From Candidatus Latescibacterota bacterium (lineage in GTDB: Bacteria > Latescibacterota > UBA2968 > UBA8231), in contig OZ253462.1 in the NCBI GenBank assembly GCA_965261395.1, positions 3,296,001 through 3,360,000 on the forward strand: DNA of 64,000 nucleotides, written 5' to 3'. The notes under the pieces were generated by a model. The model searched no databases. It had not been told where the DNA came from and saw nothing but the letters and a program-made list of their open reading frames with translations. The position numbers were made by a program, and so were the translations under genes. Shown here in pieces: positions 2,154-43,465 of this stretch; position 1 is the stretch's first letter, and each line of letters begins with the position of its first letter.

Positions 2154-2232
2154 GGAGGGACTCCTCTGGGTGGATTTTCTTTTTAGGCCCTAATCAAACC
2201 ACAAACGACTAGAGAGCCAATTGAGGTGTCAA

Positions 2233-4229: not shown

Positions 4230-4399
4230 ATGAAAGCGGTTTTATTCGATTTATTCGAAACGCTCGTGACACTTCGCAGCTCCGTTCAAATGGCTGGACG
4301 ATTGGGATTGTTAGCAATGCTACTCCGGACGAGGTGGCCGATTGGTCCGAATGCCCGCTCCGCGATGCAGTGGATGATGCTGTTTTTTCATGTCAAATA
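4230..4399 (+). pseudogene. HAD-family hydrolase remnant (internal deletion/frameshift, truncated by IS30)
   Basis: MKAVLFDLFETLVT (HAD motif I) in one frame, then LRSNGWTIGIVSNATPDEV...VDDAVFSCQIG (motif II region) in another frame. The sequence ends at the IS30 left end. Confidence 0.7.
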
Positions 4400-5510: not shown

Positions 5511-5513
5511 GTA

Positions 5514-5542
5514 TTGATACACTCTGAACTATTGACTATAAT
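5514..5542 (+). promoter_or_regulatory. sigma70-type promoter for the 5600-23362 gene run
   Basis: TTGATA (5514-5519), 17-nt spacer, TATAAT (5537-5542); the ATG at 5600 follows 57 nt later. Confidence 0.7.
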
Positions 5543-5599
5543 TGCTGTGGAAACGGCGTCGACATTGGATTGTAGCACTTCTTCTCGGAGTTTGCGACA

Positions 5600-8095: not shown

Positions 8096-8174
8096 ACTCT
8101 TTCCATATTCGGCGATCCGCTCCGCGGGTTGAGCACGCCCGACCAGGCTATCCAACGCGGAAGGAAAAGACAAG

Positions 8175-11345: not shown

Positions 11346-11393
11346 GTCGAGATCTACCGAGATAATTCCACTCGAGTCTGGCAGGAGGGTGTT

Positions 11394-14135
11394 GTGCACA
11401 GACCATACGGCAGACGTTTCGTATGTTTTTTTGCCCTGTGCGTCCTACTCGCAGAGGAGCCGCTCCAAGCCCAGGAAATCGGCACCCGCCTAGGGGCGCG
11501 GCGCGGCGGCGAGATTTCCTATGAATTGCAGGGTTCGGGCGTGCTTTTTGATGCCTTGGATCCGGCGGTCAAGAAGTGGTACGTACCCCAGGAGTTATTC
11601 TACGAATTCCAGTGGCGCCAGTGGCAGTATTCCAACTACGCTCGCAGCCGCTACCTCAGGTACGTGAACACCTCGCTCGAAGGAGACTATTTCTACGATC
11701 TCTACGGCAATTTCATCACCCGCGGCAAACTCGTATACGACTGGCGCGTCTCCACTCCCCAAGTGGCCGGGAATGCCCTGTTCAAGGGCAGCGAGTTCAG
11801 ATCTTGGTTCAACAACTTGGTGATCGCCTCGGACTCAAAGGGCCAGTACTTCTACAGCCTGACCGTGGGCGACAGGATTCGCACGACGCTGACGCCCATG
11901 ACCTTTTCCAAACCCAGCTTTACTGGTATGCAGTTCGATTTCGCCAGCGACAAGTACGAGTTTACCCTCCTTGCCTCGCGTCCCAGCGCGGCCGGAGCAG
12001 TCGGCGACCTGGGGCCCTCCGGAGCCGGTGAGCGCTCCAATGATACCAATCTATTGGGAGGTCGTGGCACCATCCAGGTGGGTGACTTCGTCCGGTTGGG
12101 GACGACCTATGTCAGCGCCTTCAATGCGCAGACCAAGAACCAAGCCTTCTCGGGGAACCCGTTCAGGGGCACCTTGACCGAAGGGCAGAACAACGATGTA
12201 ACGCGCATTGAGATCCGCCTGAGTGACGACTCGCCCGAAGACGGCGATGGCGGGACGGCCTTCTTCCAAGAAGAGATCATCATCACCAATATCGACGGCA
12301 AGCGCTTCAGCAATCGCCGTCCTTTGGACGGCAATTCCATCCTCAACTTTTTCCCCACTATCCAAGGCGGCTTCCGCCAGGAAGGCTTCCTCTCGGCCGA
12401 TGGCAGCGAAGTCATAAGCCTGATATACGATCTGGAGGGTCCAGAATACCGCCAGGCCTTTGGCCCGGCTCCCGATCGGATCAAGAGCGTCGAATTCGTG
12501 CTGCTGCTGGCCAATGACTATCGCATTGACCTGACCTCCAACCGCCAAGTGAACCAGAAACGACAACCGGTGACGCTGGCCGAGGGCATTCCCGAGCGCA
12601 CAATTCGCGCCCCGGGCAATGTCCAGGACGGCTCCAACCAGCGTTTTATTTCCCTCCTGTACGGACTACCCGTAGGCAACGAAATCTTCGGCTTTACCCT
12701 CGATGTGGAAAATGCGCAGGGATTTTTCCTGGCGGGCGAATTCGCCCACAACCGGCAACACAAGCGCTATCCACGCCGGCTGGAAACGGATGTGACCGAA
12801 CACACGCCTTCTCAAGAAAGCGGGGACGCTTGGTTTCTGAATCTGTACAAACGGGCTCATCCGCTGTTCTTTTTTGCCGAAGCCTACAGCATGGATCCAA
12901 GCTACAGTACCAGCACTTTCCTGGCGGGCGTCCAGAACGATCTGGGACCGATCCTCTACGACGACAACCGCCAGTTTGTCTACGAATTTGTCGAGGACAA
13001 CGACGACCAGGACCGCTTCCCCGACTGGTTCCGCCGCGGTTTCACTCGCGACACCGAGATCTTTCCGGGCTGGGATGAGAACAGAGACTTCATCGTCGAC
13101 TTCAACCAGAATGACAATCTCCGGCGTCCCAACACCATCCCCGACTACGAAGAGCCCTTCCTGCGCTACAGTTCGGACCGGCCGGACTTTCTCTTTGGGA
13201 TCGACATGAACAACAACGGCATTGTCGATCGCTTTGAGAACGACATCCAGCCGGACTATCTCTACAAGCGGGATCGACGGGGCTACAATATCTACGTCGG
13301 TTCCAGTCTGGGGCCCGACGCCCGTCTGAGCGTGGGACGCCAGCGCGAGAGGCAATTGGCGGATGATCGGCGGAACAAAAGTACCTATCTATTGCTGACC
13401 TACGAGAAGGATTTTCCGCGGCGAGGACGGCTGCAATTCTACGACAATCTGCGCAGGATTGAGGACAATATCCGCGACAACGTGATAGAATGGGTGCTCC
13501 GGGAGGGGTCGCGAGGAGATTTCGTGCCCTTCGAAGACCCCCTGCCCGCCCGCAATGCCTGGGCCAATACTCTCTACTTGGGCTACCATTACGCCGCGGA
13601 TAACCTGCGCATTATCAACCGCTTCAAATACGAGTTCTTCCGCCAAGTGGACTTCGATGAGCGGCCTTTCAAGCAGCAGAACATCCGCGAGATGGCCAGC
13701 CTGCTGGGGATCATCAACAAAGCGGAATACACCTTTAACTTGGGCGCTCTGCGGCTGGAGCCGCGCTGGAAGAACGAGTTTTTGCGCCACCGGCCCACCC
13801 GCAAAGAAGAACAGATCCGCGTGGCTACTACCGAACTACGGGAGCTTTTGTCCCTGATAGGTCGCATTTCGATTCTATCCAGGACCACCCTGCAGGTCGG
13901 CCTGGAATACTTTTACGTCAACCAGTTCAGGGATATCCTCGAGAACGATCCGGTCCGCTCAGATCGCAATGAGCTGATCTATGCTCTCCAACTCACCAAC
14001 AACGTGGCCTACTTGGGCTACGACTTGTGGGCCCAGGCGGGTATCCACATCGCCCGGGTCGATCGGCAGGCCGCGGCCAAAGTGCAGACGGAGAGCAGCC
14101 TTTTTCTCACGCTGTACGCTGGTTTTGGGGAGTGA
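11394..14135 (+). CDS. putative outer-membrane beta-barrel protein with acidic, possibly Ca-binding insert (barrel paralogue A)
   Basis: GTG start with GGAGG RBS; signal peptide (LQA-Q); many amphipathic aromatic beta-strands; ends ...SLFLTLYAGFGE; colinear with 54225-56933. Confidence 0.65.
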   Translation: MHRPYGRRFVCFFALCVLLAEEPLQAQEIGTRLGARRGGEISYELQGSGVLFDALDPAVKKWYVPQELFYEFQWRQWQYSNYARSRYLRYVNTSLEGDYFYDLYGNFITRGKLVYDWRVSTPQVAGNALFKGSEFRSWFNNLVIASDSKGQYFYSLTVGDRIRTTLTPMTFSKPSFTGMQFDFASDKYEFTLLASRPSAAGAVGDLGPSGAGERSNDTNLLGGRGTIQVGDFVRLGTTYVSAFNAQTKNQAFSGNPFRGTLTEGQNNDVTRIEIRLSDDSPEDGDGGTAFFQEEIIITNIDGKRFSNRRPLDGNSILNFFPTIQGGFRQEGFLSADGSEVISLIYDLEGPEYRQAFGPAPDRIKSVEFVLLLANDYRIDLTSNRQVNQKRQPVTLAEGIPERTIRAPGNVQDGSNQRFISLLYGLPVGNEIFGFTLDVENAQGFFLAGEFAHNRQHKRYPRRLETDVTEHTPSQESGDAWFLNLYKRAHPLFFFAEAYSMDPSYSTSTFLAGVQNDLGPILYDDNRQFVYEFVEDNDDQDRFPDWFRRGFTRDTEIFPGWDENRDFIVDFNQNDNLRRPNTIPDYEEPFLRYSSDRPDFLFGIDMNNNGIVDRFENDIQPDYLYKRDRRGYNIYVGSSLGPDARLSVGRQRERQLADDRRNKSTYLLLTYEKDFPRRGRLQFYDNLRRIEDNIRDNVIEWVLREGSRGDFVPFEDPLPARNAWANTLYLGYHYAADNLRIINRFKYEFFRQVDFDERPFKQQNIREMASLLGIINKAEYTFNLGALRLEPRWKNEFLRHRPTRKEEQIRVATTELRELLSLIGRISILSRTTLQVGLEYFYVNQFRDILENDPVRSDRNELIYALQLTNNVAYLGYDLWAQAGIHIARVDRQAAAKVQTESSLFLTLYAGFGE

Positions 14136-14174
14136 GTTCGCTTCTCTCGGTGGAACTTGGAGGCCGTATCGATC

Positions 14175-16364
14175 ATGAGTAGACAGAAGAGCCTGCTGAT
14201 CTGGAGCGCCCTGTCCCTAGTGGGCGCAAGCGCACTGTCAGCAGAGGTCGAAAAGTGGCGAGTGGGGGACGAGATGCATCCTTGGCAACTGGTCCCGGTG
14301 AGCGGGATCACTCGGTGGGGCCGGGGCTGGGCCTTGGAAATCCTCCAAGACGGGGACGGTAGCACGTGGCTTAGTCCCGTCCGCCTAGACAGCACTTTGA
14401 ACTTGGTCGCCTTGCTTGCCGAACGGGCCCAAAGGGGTGAGTACGGTACAGATATCGCCATTGTCCCCAGCGAGGCGGGAGTCCGCATAGAAGTGGCCGA
14501 CCCCTTCAATACCACGGCCTATGGGGGGACCAAAAAAAACAGGGCCAAGATGGCCGACGGCGATCTGTTCACTGCCTACGGTCTCACCACCCGAGACGCC
14601 AATGCTCGCTTCGACCTCCGCTTTCAGGGCTACTACTACATCCAGCGGATCGTTTTCCAGCCGCGCCCCAGCGTGCCAGAGGCCACCATGCGGGATTACT
14701 GGGTGCGCTACGGGAATGCCGCGCACATCAACAACAACAGGCTGAGTGTCTATCCCTTTGTGATCCCTCCCCAAGTCGGCCAGCAAATACCCGTAATCAA
14801 GGATATATCTCTGGATCAACCACTGCTGATGGGGATGGTGGACATTCTCTCCCGACATCCACCCGGCGAGTACTGGGAGATCGCCGAGGTGGAAATTTAC
14901 GGAGATGGGTATCCCACGGATGGTTTCTATGCTTCGGAGATAATCGACTTGGGGGTGAATCCACCCGGCGTGCGGCGCTATACCCAGCAGTGGGATCGTT
15001 ACAAGCTAGAAGACCGGACAGAAGTAGAGAGCCAGTTCCCCGACCAGGAGGGCAATTCGGTCACCTGGGGAAAGGTGCGCTGGAAAGCCCGTCGCCTGGG
15101 GGAGGAAGGGGACGTGCGCATTCAGTTTCGCGCCGGAAATTCCTTGGACACCCATATTTACCAGCGGCGAGTGGGGAAGGATGTGGTCGATATGCGGGAC
15201 GAAAACGGCCGTACCCTGGACGCGTTCGGTTGGGCGAATCTCAACTCGCTGATGCGGGTGCCAGAGCACAACCTACCCTACAACGAGTTGGGTGCCCCAC
15301 TGGGGGCCGATGGTCCCAAAGGCTGGAGTTTCTGGTCGGCGTCGCTCCGCTACGAGGATGGCTTGGTTGATCAGACGCGGCCGGCAGAGGAGAGCGGCAT
15401 CCTCCTGCCCTTGCCCAGTCAGACCCGCTATCTGCAATTTCGCATCTTCTTCGACAGTTTGCAGCACAGCGCGGTGCTCTTCGACTACCTCGAATTCGAA
15501 TACGATGTCCCCATAGTGGGCCACGGAGTCCGCGGCGAAATCTTTCCTCCCCAGGCGTCCTTAGGTGAGGAGACCACGTTCCGCTATTTTCTCAAACCCT
15601 TCTTTGACCCAAACGACCACAGGGGCTTCAACCGCATTGAGATCGCCGTGCCCAGCCGGGACACTAGGATTCAGACGCTCAAGGTGGACGACCAGCCCTG
15701 GGTAGAGATACCAGTGGCGGCCACAGAGGGGGTAGAGCCGCAACGGCTGCCGCCAGAGCCCGGCGGACTCGATTCACTGGGGCAGTTCACCCAGACCATG
15801 GTCCTAGGCAGCTCCAGCAAGCTGTTGGTCGAGCTGCCGCCCCTCGACGTGGCCGATTTTCCGCCGGGACAGGAGCGGAATATTGAGATCGTCTTCACCT
15901 CAACCCTCTTCAATGGCTCGTGGCAGTTCACCAGCGCGGTGTGGAACGACGCCGAAAAGGGCATCCCCCAGCCCACGGAACCCGGGGATGCCAGTCCCGA
16001 ATTGAGTACGGACGTATTCACCGTAGTGGCAGAAAATTTAGGGAACCTCATCAATCGGCCCCTTGTGGAACCCAATCCCTTTACACCCAACGGCGACGGA
16101 ATTAACGACGAAGCCCTAATCTCCGTTGACCTCTTTCTGATTTCCGAGCCCATAGAACTCACCGTTGATCTGTACGACTTGTCGGGGCGTCGGGTGCGCA
16201 GCCTGGGACACGGGCGGCACGGGGCTGGTGTGGTCGAGTTGCGCTGGGACGGTCGGGACGACAGGGGGGGGATACTGCCCCCCGGAATTTACCTATATCG
16301 CGTAAGAGCGGATGCGGACGACAAACTCAAAAGGCAGACCGGGATCTTGGCCATGCTCTATTGA
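14175..16364 (+). CDS. secreted discoidin-like + FlgD-Ig/CHU_C-tail protein (paralogue 3)
   Basis: Signal peptide (ALS-A); ADGDLFTAY, EIAEVEIYGDGY, WGKVRW, WSFWS; PNPFTPNGDGIND...WDGRDDRGGILPPGIY...LAMLY. Start may be TTG at 14157. Confidence 0.75.
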   Translation: MSRQKSLLIWSALSLVGASALSAEVEKWRVGDEMHPWQLVPVSGITRWGRGWALEILQDGDGSTWLSPVRLDSTLNLVALLAERAQRGEYGTDIAIVPSEAGVRIEVADPFNTTAYGGTKKNRAKMADGDLFTAYGLTTRDANARFDLRFQGYYYIQRIVFQPRPSVPEATMRDYWVRYGNAAHINNNRLSVYPFVIPPQVGQQIPVIKDISLDQPLLMGMVDILSRHPPGEYWEIAEVEIYGDGYPTDGFYASEIIDLGVNPPGVRRYTQQWDRYKLEDRTEVESQFPDQEGNSVTWGKVRWKARRLGEEGDVRIQFRAGNSLDTHIYQRRVGKDVVDMRDENGRTLDAFGWANLNSLMRVPEHNLPYNELGAPLGADGPKGWSFWSASLRYEDGLVDQTRPAEESGILLPLPSQTRYLQFRIFFDSLQHSAVLFDYLEFEYDVPIVGHGVRGEIFPPQASLGEETTFRYFLKPFFDPNDHRGFNRIEIAVPSRDTRIQTLKVDDQPWVEIPVAATEGVEPQRLPPEPGGLDSLGQFTQTMVLGSSSKLLVELPPLDVADFPPGQERNIEIVFTSTLFNGSWQFTSAVWNDAEKGIPQPTEPGDASPELSTDVFTVVAENLGNLINRPLVEPNPFTPNGDGINDEALISVDLFLISEPIELTVDLYDLSGRRVRSLGHGRHGAGVVELRWDGRDDRGGILPPGIYLYRVRADADDKLKRQTGILAMLY

Positions 16365-16407
16365 GATACTCCCGGGCGCGCTCAAACCCTGAATAGGATA
16401 ATCTGGT

Positions 16408-17190
16408 ATGCATAGAGTACACTGCGTCCTTTTGCTGGCACTGGGGTCAATCGGCTTGACCGCGAGTTGTGCCTATCACTACTATGCCGGCAATCTGCGG
16501 CCGATGGACGAAGCAGTTCAGGGCGAGAGCAGAAGGGTCACGGACGACGGCTCTGTCATTTTCACCGCGGGACGGCTAGAAATCCAATTGCGCCCCATGA
16601 ACGACGAGGAATTGAACCGCCAGTTCAGTGTGGCTACAGAGCAGGGGACCAACCCCTATACCTACGGCCAGACAAAGATCTTCAGGACCAACCGGACTCC
16701 CAGCCGCTTTACGGTCTTCCGGTTGAGCGCGAAGAATTACGCCTATCCCAAAGTCCACATAGACCCCACTAGCCTCTACATTGAGACCGACAACGGCCGC
16801 AAGTACGCCGCGCTTAGTTTTGCCCAGCTCAAAATTTACTACCGGAGCTTTTCCCTCGGGGGGTCGGGTGGTGGAGCAGGGAATAGCGGGGATAGAAGTC
16901 GGGGTATGCGTCGGGGCGGGGAGTATCAAACCTGGCAGGAGCGCCAGGGCATCCTCAGGCGCACCTTGTTCGCCGACGAGATGATCTTCAGTGGCCAAGA
17001 GCGCGAAGGATATGTCGTCTTCAAAACTCTGGCTCCTGATGTCGCCAAGCTGACCGTCCACATTCCCGATATTACCGTGCGCTTCGATTTTAGGGACCAA
17101 CCCATTGAGACGCTTGATGTCACCTCCCGATTTGAGCGAGACATCGGACGGGAGTACCCGGACGGGCGTATTGAGTTGGCTCGGAAATAG
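16408..17190 (+). CDS. hypothetical lipoprotein
   Basis: Lipobox-like LTASC after a hydrophobic stretch; Gly-rich loop GGSGGGAGNSG; co-directional within the operon. Confidence 0.7.
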   Translation: MHRVHCVLLLALGSIGLTASCAYHYYAGNLRPMDEAVQGESRRVTDDGSVIFTAGRLEIQLRPMNDEELNRQFSVATEQGTNPYTYGQTKIFRTNRTPSRFTVFRLSAKNYAYPKVHIDPTSLYIETDNGRKYAALSFAQLKIYYRSFSLGGSGGGAGNSGDRSRGMRRGGEYQTWQERQGILRRTLFADEMIFSGQEREGYVVFKTLAPDVAKLTVHIPDITVRFDFRDQPIETLDVTSRFERDIGREYPDGRIELARK

Positions 17191-17243
17191 GGAAACCGGA
17201 TGAGTGGGAGTCTGCTGCCGTGAATTGCCGTGGAGAACGACGC

Positions 17244-18752
17244 ATGTCGCCTTGCTGGGCTTGGTTGCTGGCCGCAGTGGGCCTATCTCTGCTCGGGAAT
17301 TGCAGTCCGCAGCCACAGACCGTAGCGGACCTGCCGCTGGTACAGGTCGGCGATGAGGTGATCACCGCAGAGGTATTGCGGCAGTACGAACGGGATCTAC
17401 CCACGGCCTTTCGTGCAGCCGCCTCTGGAGCGGCGGCTCAGCGCGAGCACCTCCAGAGCCTAGTGGACCGTCAGCTGATGCTGCTCGAAGCCGGAAACAG
17501 GGGGTACAGGAGCATGCCGGAGCTGAAAGCGGAACTGGAGCAACTCGCCAATAAAAAACTGATTGACCAAGTTACAGCCGAATATATCACCCGACGGGTC
17601 GAGGTGGCCGAAGAAGAACTGCTCCAGGAGTACCAAGAGGCCGACCTGGGCTGGATGGTTCGGCCCGCCCGCATTCTCTGCGCGACCGAGGAAGAGGCCC
17701 GAAAAATCGTCCGTGAACTGGAGCAGGGAGCGGATTTCGCCGCGTTGGCAGCGGCTCGCTCGCTAAAGGGCGCGACGGAAAAGGGCGGAGACTTGGGGCA
17801 CTTCTTCGGCCCGGAGGACGTGGCCCCAGTGCTGCAGAAGGTGATCTTCGATCTGCCTGTGGGGGGCATCAGCGCGCCCATCCGCACAGTAGAGGGGTAC
17901 GAAGTGCTGACGATTCTCGATCGCTATAGAATCCCCTTCGACCGGCTAAAGGAGCGATTGGCCACGAACGTGCGCCGGCGCAAATGGGCAGCCCGGCACC
18001 TCGAGTACCTCGAGGAACTCAAGAGGACGGATAGTTTGTCTCAAATTGTTGCTAGCGATCCCAAGGCCCTGTCTGATACCCTGCTGCTGAGAGAGGCTCG
18101 CCGACAAGGATTCGATTTGAACGCCGAGTTTTTGGCCTGGCAGGAAGCCAAATGCGAAGAATTGCTGATCAGACAACTGCGTCGGCGAGAAGTGATTGAT
18201 CTGCTTCCTCCTCCTCCCGAGGCGGAAGTGCGGCAGCACTACGAGGCGCATATAGATGGGTACAGCGTACCTGGAACGGTCTACTTGACCGAGATCCTGC
18301 TCAATACTCGGGAGGAAGCTATGGAGATCCGCCAGGCCGCGGAAGCGGGACAAAGCCTAGAGGATCTGGCTCGAAAGCACTCGGTGCGTCCGAGGACTGA
18401 GGACGGACACGGGCATGTCCACGCCGGTCGAGATGGACATGTGGTCCTTTATGCCCTCCAGAGTTCGCCCTATTACAGACTATTCCAGCGCCAAGAGAGA
18501 CAGCAAGTCGGGCAAATCCAAGGGCCGGTGGAACTGGACGGCAAGTTTGCCGTATTCAGGCTGGACGAGCCCATTGAACCGCATCGGATCCCCTTTGCAA
18601 AGGTGCGGAAGCACGTCCGTCGTCGAGTCAAGTTGCAGCATGCGAAGCGGGCTTTTGAAGTCTATATCGACTCATTGCGCACGGTCTACGCCGGGGAGGT
18701 CAAGTGGTTCGACGAGCATCTGGCTGGGCTGAACGCTGGTAATACGCGATGA
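17244..18752 (+). CDS. PpiC/parvulin-type peptidyl-prolyl isomerase lipoprotein (SurA/PrsA-like)
   Basis: Lipobox LGNC; ILCATEEEA...GADFAALAAARS...KGGDLG..F parvulin motif; a second degenerate parvulin domain (EILLNTREEA...LEDLARKHS). Confidence 0.85.
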   Translation: MSPCWAWLLAAVGLSLLGNCSPQPQTVADLPLVQVGDEVITAEVLRQYERDLPTAFRAAASGAAAQREHLQSLVDRQLMLLEAGNRGYRSMPELKAELEQLANKKLIDQVTAEYITRRVEVAEEELLQEYQEADLGWMVRPARILCATEEEARKIVRELEQGADFAALAAARSLKGATEKGGDLGHFFGPEDVAPVLQKVIFDLPVGGISAPIRTVEGYEVLTILDRYRIPFDRLKERLATNVRRRKWAARHLEYLEELKRTDSLSQIVASDPKALSDTLLLREARRQGFDLNAEFLAWQEAKCEELLIRQLRRREVIDLLPPPPEAEVRQHYEAHIDGYSVPGTVYLTEILLNTREEAMEIRQAAEAGQSLEDLARKHSVRPRTEDGHGHVHAGRDGHVVLYALQSSPYYRLFQRQERQQVGQIQGPVELDGKFAVFRLDEPIEPHRIPFAKVRKHVRRRVKLQHAKRAFEVYIDSLRTVYAGEVKWFDEHLAGLNAGNTR

Positions 18753-20206
18753 AGCCGAACGTCGTCCAACCAGTGATCAAGGGCGCCAGGTACTTCCTCG
18801 CGCATGCTCCCGGATTGGTGCGTTATGGTTCCAAACCTCGCCGCGAACTCCTGAAAACCCCGGAGCTTTGGGACCAAATTGCCCTGCATCTCCGCTCGTA
18901 TTCGGAAGCCGCGGCCTATGCACCCAACCAGGTCTTTCTGGGGCAGTTTGCGCCCGACGAACTCGCCACCCGCGAGCGGCCTTGGTTCGAGGGGAACAGT
19001 CCTTGGCAGCCGCGCTATCCCCACGGCGAGATCATGCCGGAAGAGACCCTCTATGGGCTCCTCAAGATAGCCGATGCGTTCGACTTGGTCTGGCTGGAAG
19101 AGAAATTTGCCGGGGAAGTTAGAGAAGCCCTAGCCGGCCACAGCTTGGTCCACAACTCCGAATTGGAGCGGCTCGGCGACGGTCAGCCCTATGCGGCAAT
19201 CGAGACTAGCGTGGCCGATCTGGAAGCAGCGCTGCCGCTCTTGCTCAAAAATGGGCGTCTGGTCGGATGCATACATCGCGCCCACGAAGAAGATGCCACG
19301 CTGGCAGCGGACGTGTTGCTCGAAAACCTGACGTGCAAAATAACGGCTGCTATGGCGCTGAGGACGCTGTTGAGCGATACCCAACTCGATCCGGCCGCGG
19401 TTGACTATATTATCAATAGCGGTGAGGAAGCCGTCGGGGAACGCTACCAGCGAGGGGGAGGGAATCTGGCCAAAGCCGTCGGAGAGATGTGCGGTCTGAG
19501 CAATGCGACCGGATCCGACGTCAAGGCCTTTTGCTGCGGGCCGGCGCACGCCTTGGTGATGGCCGGGGCGTTGGTGAGTTCAGGCGTGTTCGATGAAGTC
19601 GTCGTAGTCGGCGGATCCTCCCTGGCCAAGCTAGGGATGAAGTTCCAAGGCCATCTGCGCTGCGACTACCCCATCATAGAGGATGTGTTGGCTGCGGTAG
19701 CAGTACTGGTGGGCCCGGACGACGGCCTCAGTCCGGTGTTGCGGCTGGACTCGATAGGGCGGCACAGTGTCGGGGCTGGTTCTTCCCAGCAGGCCGTCTT
19801 TGAGGAACTGGTCTCCCGACCTCTGGCCAGACTGGGCTTGAGCTTCAGGGACGTGGATAAGTACGCTACCGAGTTGCACAATCCAGAGGCCACAGAGCCT
19901 GCGGGCAGCGGTGATGTTCCCAGGAGGAATTACCAAATGATTGCCGCCTTGGCGGTCCTCAACAAAGAGATTGACCGGTCGGAAATGCCGGCTTTCATCC
20001 AGACGTACGGGATGCCCGGTTTTTCGCCCACCCAAGGGCATATTGCCTCCGGCATTCCCTACTTGGGCCATGCGCTGGATCGCATGAGAGATGGCACGAT
20101 GCAAAGGGCCATGTTCCTCGCCAAGGGCAGCCTGTTCCTAGGCCGAATGACGCAGATGTCCGATGGCATGTCTTTTATCGTTGAAAATAACCCCAACAGG
20201 AGTTGA
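18749..20206 (+). CDS. grdC: glycine/sarcosine/betaine reductase component C, beta subunit
   Basis: PVIKGARYFLAHAP, GEIMPE, EEAVGERYQRGGGNLAKA, DVKAFCCGP, KLGM, ELHNPE, GFSPTQGHIASG, KGSLFLGRMT. Start overlaps the previous stop (ATGA). Confidence 0.93.
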   Translation: MKPNVVQPVIKGARYFLAHAPGLVRYGSKPRRELLKTPELWDQIALHLRSYSEAAAYAPNQVFLGQFAPDELATRERPWFEGNSPWQPRYPHGEIMPEETLYGLLKIADAFDLVWLEEKFAGEVREALAGHSLVHNSELERLGDGQPYAAIETSVADLEAALPLLLKNGRLVGCIHRAHEEDATLAADVLLENLTCKITAAMALRTLLSDTQLDPAAVDYIINSGEEAVGERYQRGGGNLAKAVGEMCGLSNATGSDVKAFCCGPAHALVMAGALVSSGVFDEVVVVGGSSLAKLGMKFQGHLRCDYPIIEDVLAAVAVLVGPDDGLSPVLRLDSIGRHSVGAGSSQQAVFEELVSRPLARLGLSFRDVDKYATELHNPEATEPAGSGDVPRRNYQMIAALAVLNKEIDRSEMPAFIQTYGMPGFSPTQGHIASGIPYLGHALDRMRDGTMQRAMFLAKGSLFLGRMTQMSDGMSFIVENNPNRS

Positions 20207-20210
20207 GCAG

Positions 20211-20681
20211 ATGGAACTGCAAGGAAAAAAAGCGATCGTCTTAGGCGAGCGGGACGGGGTGCCGGGTACGAGCATAGCAAACTGCGTCCGCAGCGCCGGT
20301 GCCGAAGTGGTCCTGGAGGTGACCTATTGCTTTGTGTGAACGGCCGCAGGCGGCGTTGACCTGGAAGGTCAAGAGGAAATCAAACGGACCGTCGAGCGCA
20401 CGGGCAGCGACGATGTCATCGTCATTTTGGGCACGCCCACCGCAGACAGCAGCAAGCTGTACGCCCTGACCATGACCGAAGGGGATCCAACTTGGGCGGG
20501 TGCCCTGGCCGGTCGAGCCCTTGGACTTCCGGTCTACCACATTATAGAGCCCGAGATCAAAGCGGCCGTGGACAGCGCGGTGTACGAGGCCGAGGTAGGC
20601 GTGGCCGAGATGGTCATGGACGAGGCCGCAGCCATCGTGGAAGCCGTGCGGGAAGTGCGTCAACGAAACACTACTCTTTAA
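20211..20681 (+). CDS. grdA: reductase selenoprotein A (Sec at codon 43, TGA 20337-20339)
   Basis: MELQGKKAIVLGERDGVPG...YCFV-U-TAAGGVDLEGQ...GDPTWAGALAG..LGLPVYHI, the canonical GrdA CxxU motif. The frame stays open after TGA to TAA at 20679-20681 (156 aa). Confidence 0.95.
20356..20372 (+). promoter_or_regulatory. bacterial SECIS hairpin of grdA
   Basis: TTGACCT-GGA-AGGTCAA, a perfect 7-bp stem with GGA loop starting 16 nt after the UGA. Confidence 0.75.
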
Positions 20682-20703
20682 GGCGAAATTTGGGGGTGAA
20701 CTC

Positions 20704-22053
20704 ATGGTTGAAACGCTGCGGGTAGTCCACTATCTGAATCAGTTTTTCGGGGGTATCGGTGCTGAGGAGCACGCCAATATCCCCCTGCAGGTCGAGGAAG
20801 GTGCCGTAGGGCCGGGCCGCGCGGTCCAGCAGATGTTGGGCGAGCGAGGGGCCGTGGTGGCCACGTTTGTCTGCGGCGACAATTATTTCGTCGAAGAGGG
20901 AGAGCAAGCTGCGGTTGCCGCCCGCCAAGCCCTCGAACACTACGCCCCTGATCTGGTACTCGCCGGCCCGGCCTTTGACGCGGGGCGCTACGGAGTGGCG
21001 TGTGCTCAGATGTGCGCCGTGGCTAAAGAGGCGGGCGTACCGGCCGTCACCGGCATGTACCCCGAGAACCCGGGGTACACTACCTTCCGGCGAGAGCTGG
21101 TGTGCGTACCTACGGGCACTCGGGCGACGGAGATGCAGGCTATCCTCACCCGCATGATCGAATTGGGCGTAAAGCTGGCTCGCGGCGAGGAACTCGGCCC
21201 TGCGGCCAAGGAGGGCTATTTGCCCACGGGCCTCAGAAAATCCGTCGTGCGTCAACAGCCTGGCTGGGAGCGGGCCATCGACATGCTGGAGGCTCGCGTG
21301 CACGAGCGACCTTATGCATCGGAAGTACTGCTTCAGCAGTACGAAACCGTGCCGCCGCCGCCGCCGGTAGAGGATCTTGGACAGGTAACTCTGGGTCTGG
21401 TCACCAGCGGTGGTTTGGTGCCCCGGGGCAATCCCGACGGACAGGTCTCTGGATTCGCTCAGCAGGCTTTTCGCTACTCTATCGAAGGGCAGAAGGCGCT
21501 GAGTACAGAGGACTGGGAATCCGTCCACGGGGGCTTCAACCCCCACATCCTCAACACCAAGAAGCCCAGCTATGTGCTGCCGTTGCCCGTTTTGCGGGAA
21601 TTGGAAGAAGAAGGGAAAATCGGCGCGATTTATCCGTACTTTTTCTCCACGGTGGGCAACGGCACTGCCGTCTCTCAAGCTAAGCAGATGGGAGCGCAGA
21701 TCGCCCAAGAGTTCAAAAGAGCCCAGATACGGGCGGCGCTCTTGGTGGCCACCTGAGGCAGTTGCAATCGTTGCGGAGCGACGATGAGCAAAGAGCTGGC
21801 CCGGGAGGGCATTGACGTGGTCGTGGTGAGCGCTATTCCCATGATCCCCATGTCGGTGGAAGTGAGCCGAGTGGTGAGAGGGGTGCGCGTGGAGCACGTG
21901 TGCGGCGATCCGAATTTGAACGAGGAAAACGATCGGCGACTGATGCGCCGGATCGTCGAGACGGCCCTGCAGGCCCTGCGCACCGAAGTCGCTGGCCCCA
22001 CCCTATTCGATCCGGACGCATCGTCCGCCGAGGAGAGAGTCCATGCGTCTTGA
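20704..22053 (+). CDS. grdB: reductase selenoprotein B (GrdB/GrdF/GrdH family; Sec at TGA 21754-21756)
   Basis: VVHYLNQFFGGIG, CGDNYF, GPAFDAGRYG, GMYPENPG, LVTSGGLVPRGNPD, HGG; LVAT-U-GSCNRCGATM (UxxCxxC). Joins ORF-track entries 20704-21756 and 21784-22053 (449 aa). Substrate subtype unresolved. Confidence 0.92.
21767..21785 (+). promoter_or_regulatory. bacterial SECIS hairpin of grdB
   Basis: ATCGTTGC-GGA-GCGACGAT, an 8-bp stem (one G-U pair) with GGA loop starting 10 nt after the UGA. Confidence 0.75.
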
Positions 22054-23362
22054 ACTAGGTACCTTTCCGGTCGATGAGGCGCGTTTCGGGTCGGAGACTC
22101 GCTGGCACGACGGACAGCTAGAGATCAACAGGCAGGAGTTGCTGGATCTCGCCCTGCAAGGGGGTGATATTCCCTCGGCGAGCATCGACTTGGTGCGGCC
22201 CGGCGAATCCGTGCGCATCGTAAAAATGCAGAACCTATACGAGCCCAAGGTGAAAGTGGCGGGTCCGGGGATGTTTTACCCCGGAGTGTGCGGTCGGCCT
22301 GCCGCTGCCGTGGGCCAAGGGCGGACCCATCGGCTAGGCCAGGTCGCCGTCGCGCTCTGCATCGACACCGGCCCCCTAGGACCGAGTGCGCGCCAGCGTT
22401 CCGAGCGGACGGCTCGGGAATCGAGTGCAAGCGCAGGTGTTCCGCGAGAAAACCGAGGCGGGTTCCTCGACATGTCCGGCCCGGGAAATCTACCTCCGTA
22501 CGATGAACTCAACCTAGTCTGCGCGACCCTGGAAAATCCCCGGGGCGAGGAGGAAGACTGCCATCTGGCCGTCCAAGCCGCGGTCTTGAGGATAGTGGAC
22601 CGGCTGGCCCAGACCACCTCGGGGTTGGAGCCGCCCGAACTGGAAGTATTTGATCTCACCTCGACAGATCCCTCCCTCCCGGGCTTTGTCTTCATAACCC
22701 ACTTGGCGTCCAACGAGTGGCAGGTGGGTCCGCGATCCCAGCGTGGCACCTCGGTATACGGACAAACGAGGCTCTCAGCGCCCTGGCTGCTCTACCCCAC
22801 GGAGGTGATGGACGGTGCCCTCTTCATGGGTTCTGGACGCTCTACCTGCTGGCATCTGTCCAACAACCCAGCGGTCGTCCATCTCGCCCGGCGGCACGGC
22901 GAGAGTTGCAACTTCCTAGGCTGCATTGTGCAGCGCACGAATTGGACCACCCAGGGGGAGAAGGATATGGCGGCCGAGCGCGCCGCTTTGCTGGCCAAGA
23001 GTTTGGGGGCCCAGGGTGCCATTGTAACCACCGACTTCCGGGGCCAGCGGTTTTTGGAGACTGCTCTGACGGTCAGGGCCTGCGAGCGCCAGGGGATCGA
23101 GACCGTTTTGCTCACCGGGGAAGAGGACAACGAGGCAGGAGCGGCTCCGCCCTTGCTGGTGTCATTTGCCGAGATCCGCTCTGTGGTCAGCACGGGTACA
23201 GGCGGCTTTGAGCAGTCCTTCCCGGCTGTAGAAGAAGTGGTGGGAGCTAATTGTCCCGAGGATCACTGGTTCGAGGAAAAGCCGCCCGTGCACGGGCGCT
23301 ACGGCGTCAGCTACATCACCGACTACTATGGCTCTGGATACCATAGCTGCGAGGATTATTGA
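22043..23362 (+). CDS. reductase component B proprotein subunit (GrdE/GrdG/GrdI family), divergent
   Basis: MRLELGTF, PGESVRI, EPKVKV, VGQGRTHRL, LDMSGPG, LYPTEVMDGA, NNP, LGAQGAIVT, CERQGIETV. Overlaps the grdB stop. Confidence 0.85.
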   Translation: MRLELGTFPVDEARFGSETRWHDGQLEINRQELLDLALQGGDIPSASIDLVRPGESVRIVKMQNLYEPKVKVAGPGMFYPGVCGRPAAAVGQGRTHRLGQVAVALCIDTGPLGPSARQRSERTARESSASAGVPRENRGGFLDMSGPGNLPPYDELNLVCATLENPRGEEEDCHLAVQAAVLRIVDRLAQTTSGLEPPELEVFDLTSTDPSLPGFVFITHLASNEWQVGPRSQRGTSVYGQTRLSAPWLLYPTEVMDGALFMGSGRSTCWHLSNNPAVVHLARRHGESCNFLGCIVQRTNWTTQGEKDMAAERAALLAKSLGAQGAIVTTDFRGQRFLETALTVRACERQGIETVLLTGEEDNEAGAAPPLLVSFAEIRSVVSTGTGGFEQSFPAVEEVVGANCPEDHWFEEKPPVHGRYGVSYITDYYGSGYHSCEDY

Positions 23363-23394
23363 CGGGTTTGGCCGTGCGCAGGAAAGGCGTCAAC

Positions 23395-26300
23395 CTAGCT
23401 TTGAGCGGCAAAGGCGAGAGCATTCTGAAATAGCTTCAGCCACGGCCCCTCTTCGCCCGTCCACTCCGCCGGACGCCAAGATAGCTGGACATTGCGGCAG
23501 ACGCGCTCGGGGTGCGGCATCATAATGGTAGCGCGGCCGTCGGCGCTGGTGAAGGCAGTCAGCCCGTCGGGCGAGCCGTTCGGGTTGGCCGGATAGCGCT
23601 CGGCCGGATCGCCGTAGTTATCGACGTAGCGCAGGCAAAGCTGGTTTTGCATCCGCACTCGTTCTATTTCTCGCTCGTCGCCAAATTGGACGCGGCCCTC
23701 GCCGTGCGCCACCGCAATGGGCAAACGCGAGCCTTCCATGCCGCGCAAGAGCACCGATTGGCTCTCCAGCACTTCTACGGTCGCAAATCGCGCCTCAAAC
23801 TGCTCGGAGCGGTTGCGCACAAATTGCGGCCAGTTAGCCGCGCCCGGGATCAGCTCCTTGAGGTGCGACAGCATCTGGCAGCCATTGCACACTCCCAAGG
23901 AAAAGGTATCCGGTCGCTCGAAAAAGGCGGCGAATTGCTCGCGCAGGCGGTCGTGAAAGAGGATCGAACGCGCCCAACCAGCCCCGGCCCCGAGCACGTC
24001 GCCGTAGCTGAAGCCGCCGCAGGCAGCCAGCCCGTGAAACGAACTCAACTCGACGCGTCCTGCCAATAGGTCGGTCATAGTCACGTCAACCGCCCCGCAG
24101 GCGGCTGCGTCAAAGGCTGCGGCCATTTCCACTTGGCCGTTAATGCCCTGCTCTCTCAGCACGGCCACGCGGGGCCGCGCCTTCCCTCCTATGGTCGGAG
24201 CGACTTCGTGCGCCAAGTGGAAGTTCAGGCCCGGGTCTTGGCCGTCGGCAAGGGCCTCGTACTCTTCGCGGGCGCAGTCCGGGTCATCGCGGTGGGCCTG
24301 CATCCGATACGTCAGCTCAGCCCACGCCGCGTGGAGGTCGAGCAGTGGAGCTTCATAGATGAGATCACCGCGGTGGCGAACGCGCAGGTGCAAATCGTCG
24401 GCACCGTCAACGGGCTGGCCCACCCCATGCACCAAGTCGGCGATACCCTGATCCGCAAAGACCTTGTACACGGCTTCCTCATCCTCGACGCGATATTGGA
24501 TCACAACGCCCACTTCCTCGCAAAAGAGCGCAGCGAGTAGATCGTCGCCCAGCGTGTTGATCGTCAGCTCCACTCCGCAGCGACCGGCAAACGCCATCTC
24601 AGCCACCGCGGCGAAGAGGCCACCATCGGAGCGGTCGTGGTACGCGAGCACGAGATCTTGGTCGAGCAAAGTCTGCACGGCCTCATACAAACCGCGCACA
24701 TCGCCTGCATCTACGTCCGGAGCCTCGCTGCCGATTTGATTGTAAGCTTGAGCGAGACAAGAGCCGCCGAGGCGGTTTTGTCGGCGACCCAAATCCACGA
24801 GCAGCAGCCGGGTATCGCCGACGCGCTTTAGATCGGGCGTGGCATGGCGGCGCACATCGTCCACCGACGCAAAGGCCGAGACGACCAAACTCAACGGCGC
24901 GACCACTTTGTGCGCTGCGCCCTCGGCGTTTTCCCACACCGCCCGCATGGACAGCGAGTCTTTACCCACCGGGATCGACACGCCTACTGCCGGGCAAAAC
25001 TCCAACCCCACTGCGCGCACTGTGTCGTACAAGGCCGCATCTTCGCCCTCCTCGCCACAGGCGCACATCCAGTTGCCCGACAGCTTGATGCGGTGGATCG
25101 GGCCGATGTGCGCCGCAGCAATGTTAGTAATCGCCTCGGCAATGGCCATGCGCCCAGACGCTGGCGCATCCACCAAGGCGAGGGGCGTGCGTTCACCCAT
25201 GGCCATGGCCGACCCGGTGTACCCCTGAAAGGAGTGGCAAGTCATGGCCAGATCCGCGACCGGCACCTGATGGGGGCCGACCATCTGATCGCGGGCCACC
25301 AAGCCGGTGACCGTGCGGTCGGCAATGGTGATGAGGAAGGTCTTGGCCGCTACGGCTGGGAAGCGGAGCACGCGCTCGGCGGCCTCGGCTATCGAGGGGC
25401 CCTCCAAGGCGAGGGGTTGCCGCACGGGCCGGCTGCGCGTTGCGCGGCGCAGCATCTTGGGCGGTTTGCCCAAAATGACCGCTAGATCGAGGTCGTCGAT
25501 GGGCTTGCCGCCGAGCAGCGCGTCGTCGAGCGACAGCGTGCCGTCGCCAGTGATCTCGCCGATGACCGCAAACAGGCAGCGCTCGCGCGCGGCCAACTCG
25601 GCAAAGCGATCCAAATCAGCGCGGCCCACCACCAGCACGTAGCGCTCTTGCGCCTCATTGCTCCAAATCTGCATCGGACTCATGCCCGGGTCGTCGTTGT
25701 GAATGGCCCGCAAGTCAAAGCGCGCCCCTACGTCTGCGACTAACTCCGGGCAGGCGTTGGACAGGCCGCCGGCCCCCACATCGTGGATGCTGATGATGGG
25801 ATTTTCCGCACCGAGCGAAATGCAGCGGCTGATTAGCTCTTGGCAGCGGCGCTGCATCTCGGGGTTGTCGCGCTGCACCGAGGCAAAGTCGAGGTCCTCG
25901 CTGTTAGCGCCTGTGTCCATGCTAGAGGCCGCGCCCCCGCCGAGGCCGATGAGCATGGCCGGTCCTCCGAGTTGAATGACGCAATCGCCCGCCGCTGGGG
26001 TTTTCTTTTTTACGTGCGCGGCGTCGATGAGGCCGACGCCACCGGCGACCATGATCGGCTTGTGGTAGCCGCGCCACACCCCAGTGCTGTCGTCTTCTAA
26101 GGTGCGGAACATCCCCAAGATGTTGGGCCGGCCGAATTCATTGCCAAACGCCGCGCTGCCGATCGGCCCTTCGGTCATAATGGCGAGCGGAGTAGCCAAG
26201 CGGTCCGGGAAGGCCGCGCGTTCTTTTTCCCACGGCTGGGCAAACCCAGGCAGGCGCAGATGCGAGGTGAAAAAGGCGCACAGGCCCGCCTGCGACCAGC

Positions 26301-27246
26301 CGCCGGTGCCGACTGCCCCCTCGTCCCGAATCTCCCCTCCGACTCCAGTGGACGCCCCGGGATAAGGCGCGATAGCAGTGGGGTGGTTGTGGGTCTCGAC
26401 CTTGATCAAGACGTGGGTTTGTCGCTGGCGGTATCCATAGCGAAAGTCCTCGTCTAGCTGCGGGCCAAAGACTGGCACATCAGAGCCCTCAATCACGCCG
26501 GCGTTGTCGGAATACGCCTTAACCGTGCCTTCGGGGTGAGCGGCGTGCGTGTGGCGAATCATGTCGAAGAGCGAGCGCGCCTCGCGCTGGCCGTCGATGA
26601 TCCAATCGGCATTGAAAATTTTGTGGCGGCAGTGCTCGGAGTTGACCACCGCAAACATCATTAGCTCCACATCGGTTGGGTCGCGGCCCGCAAAGGCGTG
26701 CAGCGCGTAGTCGATCTCCTCGTCCGAGAGGGCCAAGCCCATCTCGCGGTTGGCGACCACGAGCGCCCGTCGCCCCTCGGCCCGCACCGGGATGTGGACT
26801 AATGGCTTGGGTTCCACGCGGCGAAAGAGAGTCTCTAAGGAATTGAGCGGAGCCTCGATCATGCGGTCGTAGAGCAGCGGCAAGACCGCGCTGGGCAAGG
26901 TATCGGCGGCAAAGGCATAGAGCGTACCGCGCTCGACGCGGCGCACGAATTCGAGGCCGCAGTTTCTGAGGATGTCGGTGGCCTTGCTCGACCACGGAGA
27001 TGTCGTGCCCAGCCGCGGGCCAATGGCCACCTCGTTGCGCGCCCTCGCTGGAAGGGCCATGTCCACGTCGAGGATCCGCATGAGCCGCGCCAACTCGTCG
27101 TCGGTTAGGGTGCGTGCGCATTGCACTGCATAGAAGTACGTGGCGCGCAGATCCTCAATCTCGGGCGCACAACTCTGGCAGCGCGCTATGAGCGACCGGC
27201 GGCGAAGAAACGACAGGGCCGGGGGGCCGACAAAGGCGAGTAACAT
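23395..27246 (-). CDS. purL: phosphoribosylformylglycinamidine synthase (large single-chain type)
   Basis: NSEHCRHKIFNA, KVETHNHPTAI, HDVGAGG, GKDSLSM, HDRSDGG, GGFSYGD, LGVCNGCQ, MMPHPER. ATG at 27246 chosen as start. Confidence 0.97.
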   Translation of the reverse strand: MLLAFVGPPALSFLRRRSLIARCQSCAPEIEDLRATYFYAVQCARTLTDDELARLMRILDVDMALPARARNEVAIGPRLGTTSPWSSKATDILRNCGLEFVRRVERGTLYAFAADTLPSAVLPLLYDRMIEAPLNSLETLFRRVEPKPLVHIPVRAEGRRALVVANREMGLALSDEEIDYALHAFAGRDPTDVELMMFAVVNSEHCRHKIFNADWIIDGQREARSLFDMIRHTHAAHPEGTVKAYSDNAGVIEGSDVPVFGPQLDEDFRYGYRQRQTHVLIKVETHNHPTAIAPYPGASTGVGGEIRDEGAVGTGGWSQAGLCAFFTSHLRLPGFAQPWEKERAAFPDRLATPLAIMTEGPIGSAAFGNEFGRPNILGMFRTLEDDSTGVWRGYHKPIMVAGGVGLIDAAHVKKKTPAAGDCVIQLGGPAMLIGLGGGAASSMDTGANSEDLDFASVQRDNPEMQRRCQELISRCISLGAENPIISIHDVGAGGLSNACPELVADVGARFDLRAIHNDDPGMSPMQIWSNEAQERYVLVVGRADLDRFAELAARERCLFAVIGEITGDGTLSLDDALLGGKPIDDLDLAVILGKPPKMLRRATRSRPVRQPLALEGPSIAEAAERVLRFPAVAAKTFLITIADRTVTGLVARDQMVGPHQVPVADLAMTCHSFQGYTGSAMAMGERTPLALVDAPASGRMAIAEAITNIAAAHIGPIHRIKLSGNWMCACGEEGEDAALYDTVRAVGLEFCPAVGVSIPVGKDSLSMRAVWENAEGAAHKVVAPLSLVVSAFASVDDVRRHATPDLKRVGDTRLLLVDLGRRQNRLGGSCLAQAYNQIGSEAPDVDAGDVRGLYEAVQTLLDQDLVLAYHDRSDGGLFAAVAEMAFAGRCGVELTINTLGDDLLAALFCEEVGVVIQYRVEDEEAVYKVFADQGIADLVHGVGQPVDGADDLHLRVRHRGDLIYEAPLLDLHAAWAELTYRMQAHRDDPDCAREEYEALADGQDPGLNFHLAHEVAPTIGGKARPRVAVLREQGINGQVEMAAAFDAAACGAVDVTMTDLLAGRVELSSFHGLAACGGFSYGDVLGAGAGWARSILFHDRLREQFAAFFERPDTFSLGVCNGCQMLSHLKELIPGAANWPQFVRNRSEQFEARFATVEVLESQSVLLRGMEGSRLPIAVAHGEGRVQFGDEREIERVRMQNQLCLRYVDNYGDPAERYPANPNGSPDGLTAFTSADGRATIMMPHPERVCRNVQLSWRPAEWTGEEGPWLKLFQNALAFAAQS

Positions 27247-27391
27247 GGGATACTTTCTAAAGGGAAAAGGTTTAATAAATGTAGGTGCTGCCATGGAAAC
27301 CCTCAAGATTGGGGCGGCGCCACGAGCGCATTTTTGCACCTATTTATATAATGTCTATCTTCAGAATCTAGCCCATGCAGTTGGAGGTTCT

Positions 27392-30193
<2,802 letters not shown>

Positions 30194-30203
30194 GAGCATT
30201 TGC

Positions 30204-31451: not shown

Positions 31452-31465
31452 CCAGCACCGCATCC

Positions 31466-43447: not shown

Positions 43448-43465
43448 CGCGAAGTGTCCCGCTCC

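Follow-up and report, generated by a model that had tools for sequence, protein, structure and literature searches.

A selenium-dependent Grd cassette end to end with a surface-protein module in a Candidatus Latescibacterota genome

Does a tight junction between the gene of an exported foldase and a selenoprotein reductase cassette mean that the two work together? We addressed this question in a 64,000-nt stretch of a Candidatus Latescibacterota genome (assembly GCA_965261395.1, contig OZ253462.1; hereafter the window), in which five genes for surface proteins and a ppiC gene are followed, on the same strand, by a grd cassette of the glycine reductase family. The sequence-only reading of this DNA had taken the ten genes for one utilisation locus, with capture at the surface, passage through the outer membrane and reductive cleavage by Grd. 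We think it probable that they are two functionally separate units lying end to end, probably on one transcript, and that the coupling between them is positional only. Unit 1 (5600-18752) would comprise the exported proteins, namely three sorting-domain proteins, a 913-aa protein, a small lipoprotein and the PpiC foldase, and unit 2 (18749-23362) would be a self-contained cytoplasmic cassette, grdC-grdA-grdB-grdE. Their juxtaposition would reflect lineage-specific history, the cassette having been placed behind a foldase gene. The features of the locus, numbered from the first base of the window, are as follows.

5514-5542, + strand: best sigma-70-like site, TTGATA-17-TATAAT, 11 of 12 positions, a consensus match only
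5600-17190, + strand: upstream surface module of five genes, all with signal-like N-termini (5600-8095, 8175-11345, 11394-14135, 14157-16364 and 16408-17190)
11394-14135, + strand: 913-aa conserved exported protein, no Pfam or PDB match
16408-17190, + strand: 260-aa putative lipoprotein, no Pfam family at E <= 0.5
17244-18752, + strand: ppiC/prsA-like lipoprotein peptidyl-prolyl isomerase (PPIase), 502 aa (510 aa from a GTG start at 17220)
18749-18752, + strand: ATGA stop/start overlap of ppiC and grdC
18749-20206, + strand: grdC, component C beta subunit, 485 aa (NCBIfam NF040746 equivalog, 644.5 bits, cut-off 450)
20211-20681, + strand: grdA, selenoprotein A, 156 aa (selenocysteine (Sec) 43 = TGA 20337-20339, motif CFVUTAAG)
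20704-22053, + strand: grdB-like selenoprotein B, 449 aa (Sec351 = TGA 21754-21756, motif ATUGSCNRC)
21757-21794, + strand: selenocysteine insertion sequence (SECIS) element of grdB (hairpin 21767-21785), Rfam SECIS_4 RF01990
22043-23362, + strand: grdE-like component B proprotein-type subunit, 439 aa (Pfam Gly_reductase PF09338, 213 bits)

The ppiC/grdC junction

The open reading frames (ORFs) of the window place ten + strand genes in 5600-23362, a count that depends on reading grdA and grdB through in-frame TGA codons at 20337 and 21754; ORF calling with translation table 11 splits grdB in two and leaves grdA unlisted. Successive spacings are 79, 48, 21, 43, 53, -4, 4, 22 and -11 bp, and the gap between the fifth gene and ppiC shrinks from 53 to 29 bp with the alternative ppiC start. 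By direct reading, the ppiC stop (TGA 18750-18752) overlaps the grdC start (ATG 18749-18751), and grdE overlaps the end of grdB by 11 nt, which gives the cassette order C-A-B-E. The starting observations of the utilisation-locus proposal, a co-directional run with gaps below 80 bp (the largest is 79 bp) and an ATGA overlap at its centre, were thus borne out.

What follows from the overlap is another matter. Four-bp overlaps occur at 5 of the 27 co-directional junctions in the window, and the other four (at 32863, 33633, 41813 and 45373) join lpd to an SDR gene, SDR to HAD, FGE to FG-GAP and FG-GAP to TPR, all apparently pairs of functionally unrelated genes. A glutaminyl-tRNA synthetase gene is likewise followed, 18 bp later, by an FGE-type gene. 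This genome habitually packs unrelated genes tightly, so the ppiC/grdC overlap alone is no proof of common function, and, if the two-unit reading is right, the suggestion that the junction provides a handle on the substrate of the module loses its basis.

The same junction is predicted to be a compartment boundary, with exported proteins encoded upstream and cytoplasmic proteins downstream. Maximum 12-residue hydropathy within the first 40 aa was 2.05-3.07 in the six upstream proteins and 0.07-1.18 in the four Grd proteins. PpiC scored above cut-off with Pfam Rotamase_2 (72 bits), Rotamase (67) and Rotamase_3 (44), with two parvulin-type domains; its hydrophobic N-terminus ends in LLGNC, where five orthologues have a lipobox, either L-x-G-S-C or L-A-G-C. 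Rotamase domains together with a lipoprotein signal point to a PrsA/SurA-like exported foldase. We also considered PpiC as a cytoplasmic maturation factor for Grd, in the manner of NifM (to which there was a sub-threshold match), and rejected this because of the lipoprotein signal peptides in PpiC and its orthologues.

Terminator-like sites were sought in 4300-24000, and promoter-like sites by sigma-70-like consensus only, with matches reported from 9 of 12 positions upwards; the promoter types of Latescibacterota may differ. Terminator-like sites numbered 21, against 17.1 +/- 4.0 after shuffling, and all eight on the + strand lay outside the intergenic gaps, in keeping with the earlier remark that the run contains no clear terminator. 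The nearest (11404-11425) falls in the opening codons of the gene for the 913-aa protein, with three G-C pairs only. Folds at the junction of the fifth gene with ppiC, at the ppiC/grdC junction and in the region after grdE were no stabler than shuffles (z = +0.4, +1.1 and +1.3, respectively). Seven promoter-like sites were found, against 5.1 +/- 2.6 expected from shuffles, and the best of them precedes the first gene of the run by 58 nt. Within 16485-23362 there was no + strand site of at least 9/12, hence none inside ppiC there. Shine-Dalgarno pairing of grdC was the weakest of the ten genes (-2.8 kcal/mol versus -4.0 to -10.8).

Because grdC combines this weakest Shine-Dalgarno pairing with a start inside the ppiC stop, its translation would be expected to be coupled to that of ppiC. 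The overlap, the weak pairing, the absence of a promoter-like site in ppiC and the absence of junction hairpins together make it likely that grd is co-transcribed with ppiC and the upstream genes, and translational coupling is probable to the same degree. Translation of grdC would then most likely depend on ribosomes finishing ppiC, and its transcription would start from an upstream promoter, possibly 5514-5542. The first two bases of that site are also the final two of the right-hand repeat of an IS30-family element (4396-5542 region; transposase 4404-5501, 32-nt inverted repeats 4396-4427 and 5484-5515), and for that reason a hybrid promoter at the border of the insertion sequence may drive the ten-gene run. 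Beyond the element, 4230-4395 resembles, as judged by eye, a HAD-hydrolase remnant interrupted by the IS30 insertion.

The alternative that survives best is that grd is transcribed alone from a promoter in the 3' part of ppiC, so that the overlap reflects genome compaction and the two units are not co-expressed. It gains from the restriction of our scan to the sigma-70-like consensus in a phylum whose promoters may be of other types, from overlaps and gaps below 30 bp being the rule in the window whatever the function of the genes, and from the cassette working elsewhere, in many settings, behind upstream regions of its own. The sequence-only reading had itself allowed for an internal promoter driving grdC independently. 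However, the scan gave no candidate in 16485-23362, with a strong 11/12 site before the first gene of the run, and weak ribosome binding at grdC is what a coupled gene would show. We therefore regard separate transcription as rather unlikely.

Linkage of the module and grd in other genomes

A GrdC scan with one genome per species yielded 80 loci, which we searched by tblastn (E <= 1e-5) with the six module and PpiC proteins. Module or ppiC genes lay beside grd in one locus only, on another Candidatus Latescibacterota chromosome (L001, OZ244561.1), which aligns collinearly with the window along 21.4 kb (95.0% DNA identity) and shares its ATGA junction. As L001 belongs to the same lineage, it is not independent evidence of linkage; as an independent assembly with the same junction, it does rule out misassembly, which the sequence-only reading had raised as a possible source of the linkage. 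The domain content of the flanks gave the same picture: no rotamase, CHU_C or FlgD_ig domain occurred in the 503 ORFs scanned beside grd, which came from 71 of the other 79 loci (the eight short loci L029, L039, L053, L055, L057, L061, L068 and L078 had no scannable flanking ORFs). The window itself holds the module a second time, in rearranged form (47097-64000); this copy is accompanied by its own PpiC paralogue and lacks grd, so the pairing of module and catabolic cassette does not recur there either.

The neighbours of grd in the other loci are of a different kind. They include SBP_bac_5 ABC importers at 14 loci, MFS transporters at 10 and a TRAP transporter at one, as well as amidohydrolases, polysaccharide-deacetylase-type enzymes, penicillin amidase and creatininase. 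By contrast, a Pfam scan of the window proteins found no inner-membrane transporter at the grd/module locus.

Several points weigh against a clean separation of the two units. Co-transcription and translational coupling would co-express them whatever their origin, even if co-expression is weak evidence for a joint role. The comparison set is biased, with 79 of the 80 loci coming from other phyla without such modules, and three of the four flanking Pfam scans were run at E <= 1e-8, at which sorting domains as weak as those of the window (E ~1e-7) are missed. In a Rokubacteria locus (L027:11928-14788), two OprB-family porin genes directly follow grdA; they are the sole outer-membrane neighbour among the 503 ORFs and demonstrate that outer-membrane uptake genes can adjoin grd. 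Finally, close relatives of PpiC and GrdB are parallel in number, with 14 database clusters at 68% identity or more for PpiC (99, 97 partial, 89-85, 79 and 68%) and 10 at 75% or more for GrdB (99-75%), whereas among the matches listed the 913-aa protein had none above 83%, and that one partial. On these numbers ppiC may belong elsewhere than in the module unit. Either the close relatives could have ppiC-grd and lack this copy of the module, or the long gene could be broken up in their assemblies and fall outside the search length window. In the former case the link between module and grd would be weaker still and the assignment of ppiC to the module would come into question.

How, then, does the single utilisation locus fare, in which the 913-aa protein would provide the outer-membrane passage between surface capture and cytoplasmic Grd cleavage? 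Tight co-directional spacing, the stop/start overlap, the lack of an intervening terminator-like site, the conservation of the arrangement in L001 and the porin genes of L027 are all in its favour, and a divergent B/E pair (see below) leaves room for an unusual substrate. However, equally tight junctions join unrelated window genes, and the linkage is confined to one lineage. A module copy with a foldase of its own does without grd, the inner-membrane transporter that such a pathway needs is missing from the locus, and an outer-membrane barrel in the 913-aa protein is hypothetical. Domain hints in the module are weak and point to glycan binding (F5/8 type C at 26 bits, below cut-off, and a CBM9-like domain in the second copy), not to amino-acid or osmolyte binding. 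We consider the single locus improbable, and the proposal was not upheld.

We give a similarly low probability to an arrangement with ppiC-grd as the conserved unit and a variable module upstream of it, the foldase being tied to grd by history or regulation. The parallel numbers of PpiC and GrdB relatives speak for it, set beside full-length relatives of the 913-aa protein that start at 71% among the matches listed, as do PpiC P0255 (79%) and GrdB P0129 (90%), single-member clusters that each lie on a 186,238-nt contig. An argument for lack of linkage from the longest contig recorded per cluster was considered and rejected, since that record is incomplete where a cluster has several members (one has 48 members and 1 contig). 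On the other side, L001 holds module, ppiC and grd collinearly, PpiC is an exported lipoprotein and Grd is cytoplasmic, a PpiC paralogue accompanies the second module copy, and no PPIase lies beside grd in the 79 other loci (tblastn; domain scans of 71). The asymmetry in relatives may also reflect a long gene broken up in short-read assemblies.

In unit 1, a C-terminal sorting-type domain of about 90 aa is common, by alignment, to the proteins of 5600-8095, 8175-11345 and 14157-16364, and the same domain ends the proteins of 47097-49295 and 49141-52011, making five window proteins in total. It scored marginally above cut-off with Pfam CHU_C (29-32 bits, cut-off 27); with FlgD_ig two proteins of the three passed (27.8 and 39.5 bits, cut-off 27) and the third did not (22), and both NCBIfam type IX secretion system (T9SS) models stayed below cut-off (type A 17 against 23, type B 16 against 35). 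Literature searches returned no link of T9SS or 'type IX secretion' with Latescibacter*. No SusC/SusD, TonB-dependent transporter or PorP/SprF-type partner was detected by Pfam among the window proteins.

The 913-aa protein matched no Pfam family at E <= 0.5, nor any PDB sequence, whether searched singly or as a profile. Its homologues at E <= 1e-5 number more than 823; among the 120 matches listed, identity was 48-83% (up to 71% for full-length ones), and all named homologues were hypothetical proteins with Latescibacteria or Gemmatimonadota labels. The family alignment contains many invariant Asp/Asn-rich motifs, and the protein is 96% identical in L001. PDB sequence searches with the 260-aa and 1056-aa proteins gave chance-level or FlgD-domain matches only.

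Besides its two sorting-domain proteins, the second module copy holds a paralogue of the 913-aa protein (46% identical, 54225-56933, - strand) and the PpiC paralogue (26% identical, 59894-61558), which is followed by a protein of at least 809 aa resembling the N-terminal part of the 1056-aa protein. Two genes of the TPR plus PMT_2 glycosyltransferase-like kind also lie there, and its 315-aa gene product had no detectable relationship to the 260-aa lipoprotein.

The Grd cassette and its divergent B/E pair

The claim of a selenium-dependent Grd cluster held up well. GrdC and GrdA both passed their equivalog models, the latter, translated with TGA as U, scoring 193.6 bits against NF040748 (cut-off 130). 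GrdC carries the Pfam domains DUF5940 and ACP_syn_III, and its PDB sequence search returned KAS III only (E = 3e-5); GrdB scored 403 bits against Pfam GRDB, and PDB sequence searches with GrdB and GrdE gave no match. The TGA of grdA fell within C-x-x-U in 72 of 72 homologous high-scoring segment pairs (HSPs) covering the site, and the aligned grdB site was a single TGA in 49 of 49, from homologues beside GrdC relatives. Given this conservation, both Sec codons are judged to be real.

The SECIS element of grdB matched SECIS_4 over the full model length at 32 bits, below the gathering score of 38 (E = 7e-5), with a fold z of -2.8 against shuffles. Its eight pairs are all maintained across 25 of 25 grdB genes in the alignment, and a compensatory change was seen at one of them; the encoded NRCGAT residues impose part of this conservation too. 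For grdA, the corresponding fold was no better than shuffles (z = -0.08). At gathering thresholds no Rfam family was found in the window, nor was any tRNA or tRNA-Sec.

GrdD forms acetyl phosphate. Neither a GrdD-type (FA_synthesis) family nor thioredoxin or thioredoxin reductase appeared among the 38 window proteins scanned, and this is the one argument for regarding the cassette as an incomplete, non-functional remnant, an explanation that we consider highly improbable given four intact genes that retain both Sec codons and the SECIS, a ratio of nonsynonymous to synonymous substitution (dN/dS) of 0.10-0.19 against L001, like that of the housekeeping genes purL (0.13) and sucA (0.19) and hence indicative of purifying selection, the rarity of a nearby grdD in this family branch (a GrdD-like ORF at 1 of the 503 flanking positions), and a genome of ~7 Mb (the L001 contig has 7,323,734 nt) in which the missing genes may lie elsewhere.

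The substrate-binding pair is far from the characterised subfamilies. GrdB passed only the subfamily model TIGR01918 (407 bits, cut-off 65). Its best NCBIfam score was with sarcosine GrdF (436 bits, cut-off 800), and it fell short of the glycine-specific TIGR01917 (386, cut-off 602), betaine GrdH (373, cut-off 775) and D-proline PrdB (69, cut-off 300). For GrdE the best NCBIfam score was with GrdG (163 bits, cut-off 780), followed by FarE (107, cut-off 675) and PrdA (16.5, cut-off 700), all below cut-off.

The Methods section of PMC9751293 defines glycine-specific GrdB and sarcosine-specific GrdF by sequence motifs. Taking the motifs as worded there, the window GrdB fits TVGNGTAV and misses the GrdB motif at four sites, with GAE for GGE, D for [NF], VHGGFN for AHGGxD and YVLPLP for RV[IL]PxD; the GrdF motif is unmatched as well. 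Among 49 B homologues from the fetched loci, the GrdB motif as given there was present in one (L040) and the GrdF motif in none.

Across the 80 loci, 42 contained B/E pairs, 22 in the order B>E and 21 in the order E>B. All B>E pairs were the closer relatives, with 37-57% identity for B. The cassette of this order was found in the window and 21 other loci (Dehalococcoidia, Entotheonella, Rokubacteria, NC10 and others), with no adjacent grdD or thioredoxin genes, and grdA lay within 1.1 kb after grdC in 66 of the 80. By these comparisons the pair is best assigned to a widespread, uncharacterised 'B-then-E' branch that published glycine-reductase filters exclude. Among 1.84 billion representatives, the small E-subunit family accounts for 853 clusters at E <= 1e-3; the window GrdE is 66% identical to the nearest representative and at most 51% to the next full-length ones. 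Among the flanking ORFs of the 71 loci, the single GrdD-like one (L009) makes a grdD away from the cluster typical of the branch, and thioredoxin occurred twice (L042 and L043).

An alignment of 56 E homologues had no Cys column near window residues 232-292 kept in at least half of them, and Cys268 of the window GrdE aligns with Ser or Thr in most. The self-cleavage site (Cys to pyruvoyl) would be expected in this region.

By homology to glycine reductase, the B/E pair would bind a glycine-like substrate, X-CH2-COO-; the carboxymethyl group would pass to the GrdA selenocysteine, and GrdC would carry it toward acetyl phosphate. A non-glycine substrate, as guessed in the sequence-only reading, would fit the divergent pair. 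PMC10838667 describes B/E-like pairs that can take a non-amino-acid substrate (fluoroacetate) and that usually adjoin a dedicated importer. A bolder proposal would be that the B-then-E cassette is a selenoenzyme in its own right, with a carboxymethyl compound other than glycine as its substrate, in organisms whose central metabolism is of the aerobic type, and is here co-expressed with a secreted module through a ten-gene transcript. We hold this to be unlikely in its entirety; if it were true, the condition inducing the module would be a handle on the substrate of the enzyme.

Some neighbours of grd elsewhere recur by lineage. In fifteen Dehalococcoidia loci (L002, L003, L014, L045, L046, L050, L051, L060, L062, L064, L070, L071, L073, L074 and L075), the genes around grdC-grdA include one for a small RTX-repeat protein, immediately upstream and read in the other direction, in many loci those of an SBP_bac_5 ABC importer, one or two polysaccharide-deacetylase-type genes and a TPR gene; several of the loci have a DUF1326 gene separating grdC from grdA. 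A DUF255/Thioredoxin_7 protein of ~500-575 aa lies beside E>B-type grd in seven loci (L005, L008, L010, L015, L016, L017 and L026), and may take the place of the absent trxA there. One Deltaproteobacteria-labelled locus has a creatininase gene close to grd (L069:7414-8232), and two Entotheonella loci have penicillin-amidase-type and acetamidase/formamidase genes close to it (L063 and L065, about 13500-16000); these neighbours hint at substrates freed by amide hydrolysis.

The window and L001, the only Latescibacterota row, formed a fully supported pair in a tree of 77 GrdC rows (quick search, LG+G4, midpoint root). The pair lay inside a 20-row clade with 15 Chloroflexota rows, where it adjoined one row from Rokubacteria and one labelled Deltaproteobacteria. 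Of the named GrdB sequences in the protein collection, the closest apart from self matches (73%) has a Chloroflexi label too. Horizontal arrival of the cassette downstream of ppiC would fit this pattern, in a tree that is unrooted and in which Latescibacterota are thinly sampled. Against it stands base composition: GC content at third codon positions is 0.69-0.72 in grd, no different from the neighbouring genes, and composition gives no sign of recent transfer. Any transfer would thus be old or from a donor of like composition.

The host was correctly described as no typical Stickland fermenter, with no trxA or trxB beside grd and with genes for 2-oxoglutarate metabolism at the following position.

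27140-32866: sucA, sucB and lpdA

The region is flanked (522-3672 and 41046-45376) by genes for two sulfatases, a sulfatase-maturing enzyme of the FGE type and two FG-GAP/ASPIC proteins, a set that suggests a capacity to degrade sulfated polymers.

If the two-unit reading is right, functional coupling of the surface module to Grd should not be carried forward. What is left is a Grd selenoprotein cluster in a phylum for which literature searches returned no earlier report, and a B/E branch that recurs in lineages not known as Stickland fermenters. In the literature searched, Grd was linked with Latescibacter*, SAR202 or Entotheonella in passing mention at most, and the cluster appears to be a Grd-family variant in a phylum without an earlier report there.

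Comparison with known systems

The utilisation-locus model rested on analogy with Bacteroidota polysaccharide utilisation loci (PULs) and type IX cargo clusters, which pair surface and catabolic genes; the window likewise has sorting-domain surface proteins and catabolic genes in one co-directional run. Such loci need SusC/SusD or TonB-dependent, PorP/SprF-type partners, which our Pfam scans did not detect here, and unlike in PULs the catabolic enzyme of the window is a cytoplasmic selenoprotein reductase.

The grd cluster of Firmicutes has a canonical gene order. Compared with glycine reductase GrdA/B/C/D/E of Peptoclostridium acidaminophilum and Clostridium sticklandii, the window shares the GrdC and GrdA equivalogs, a GrdE-type partner and a GrdB Sec in U-x-x-C-x-x-C context with a SECIS. 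It differs in its order, with B before E, in a GrdB below the glycine cut-off, in the absence of grdD, trxA, trxB and grdX near the cluster, and in a host that carries 2-oxoglutarate dehydrogenase genes. All four of those missing genes are named among the glycine-reduction genes in a figure legend of PMC10838667, and the glycine reductase reaction is outlined in PMC12674515 as reductive cleavage to acetyl phosphate with electrons from NADPH. Sarcosine reductase (GrdF/G) supplies the best-scoring models for both B and E, at scores far below the cut-offs, and for betaine reductase (GrdH/I) the B subunit likewise stays below the GrdH cut-off.

The far operon of Cloacibacillus porcorum, as presented in PMC10838667, offers a parallel in design, a substrate-specific B/E-like pair feeding shared GrdA and GrdC, and illustrates the substrate plasticity of the family through a new substrate, fluoroacetate. 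Unlike the window, it has, in that account, its own MFS antiporter and a radical-SAM gene.

A further published set is that of Grd clusters in uncultured Dehalococcoidia and other non-Firmicutes (Nobu et al. 2022, PMC9751293). The study kept only sequences with the GrdB motif, which the window protein and 48 of the 49 B homologues fail. It also reports Grd selenoproteins outside Firmicutes with inferred horizontal transfer, and the window GrdC is likewise nested among Chloroflexota sequences.

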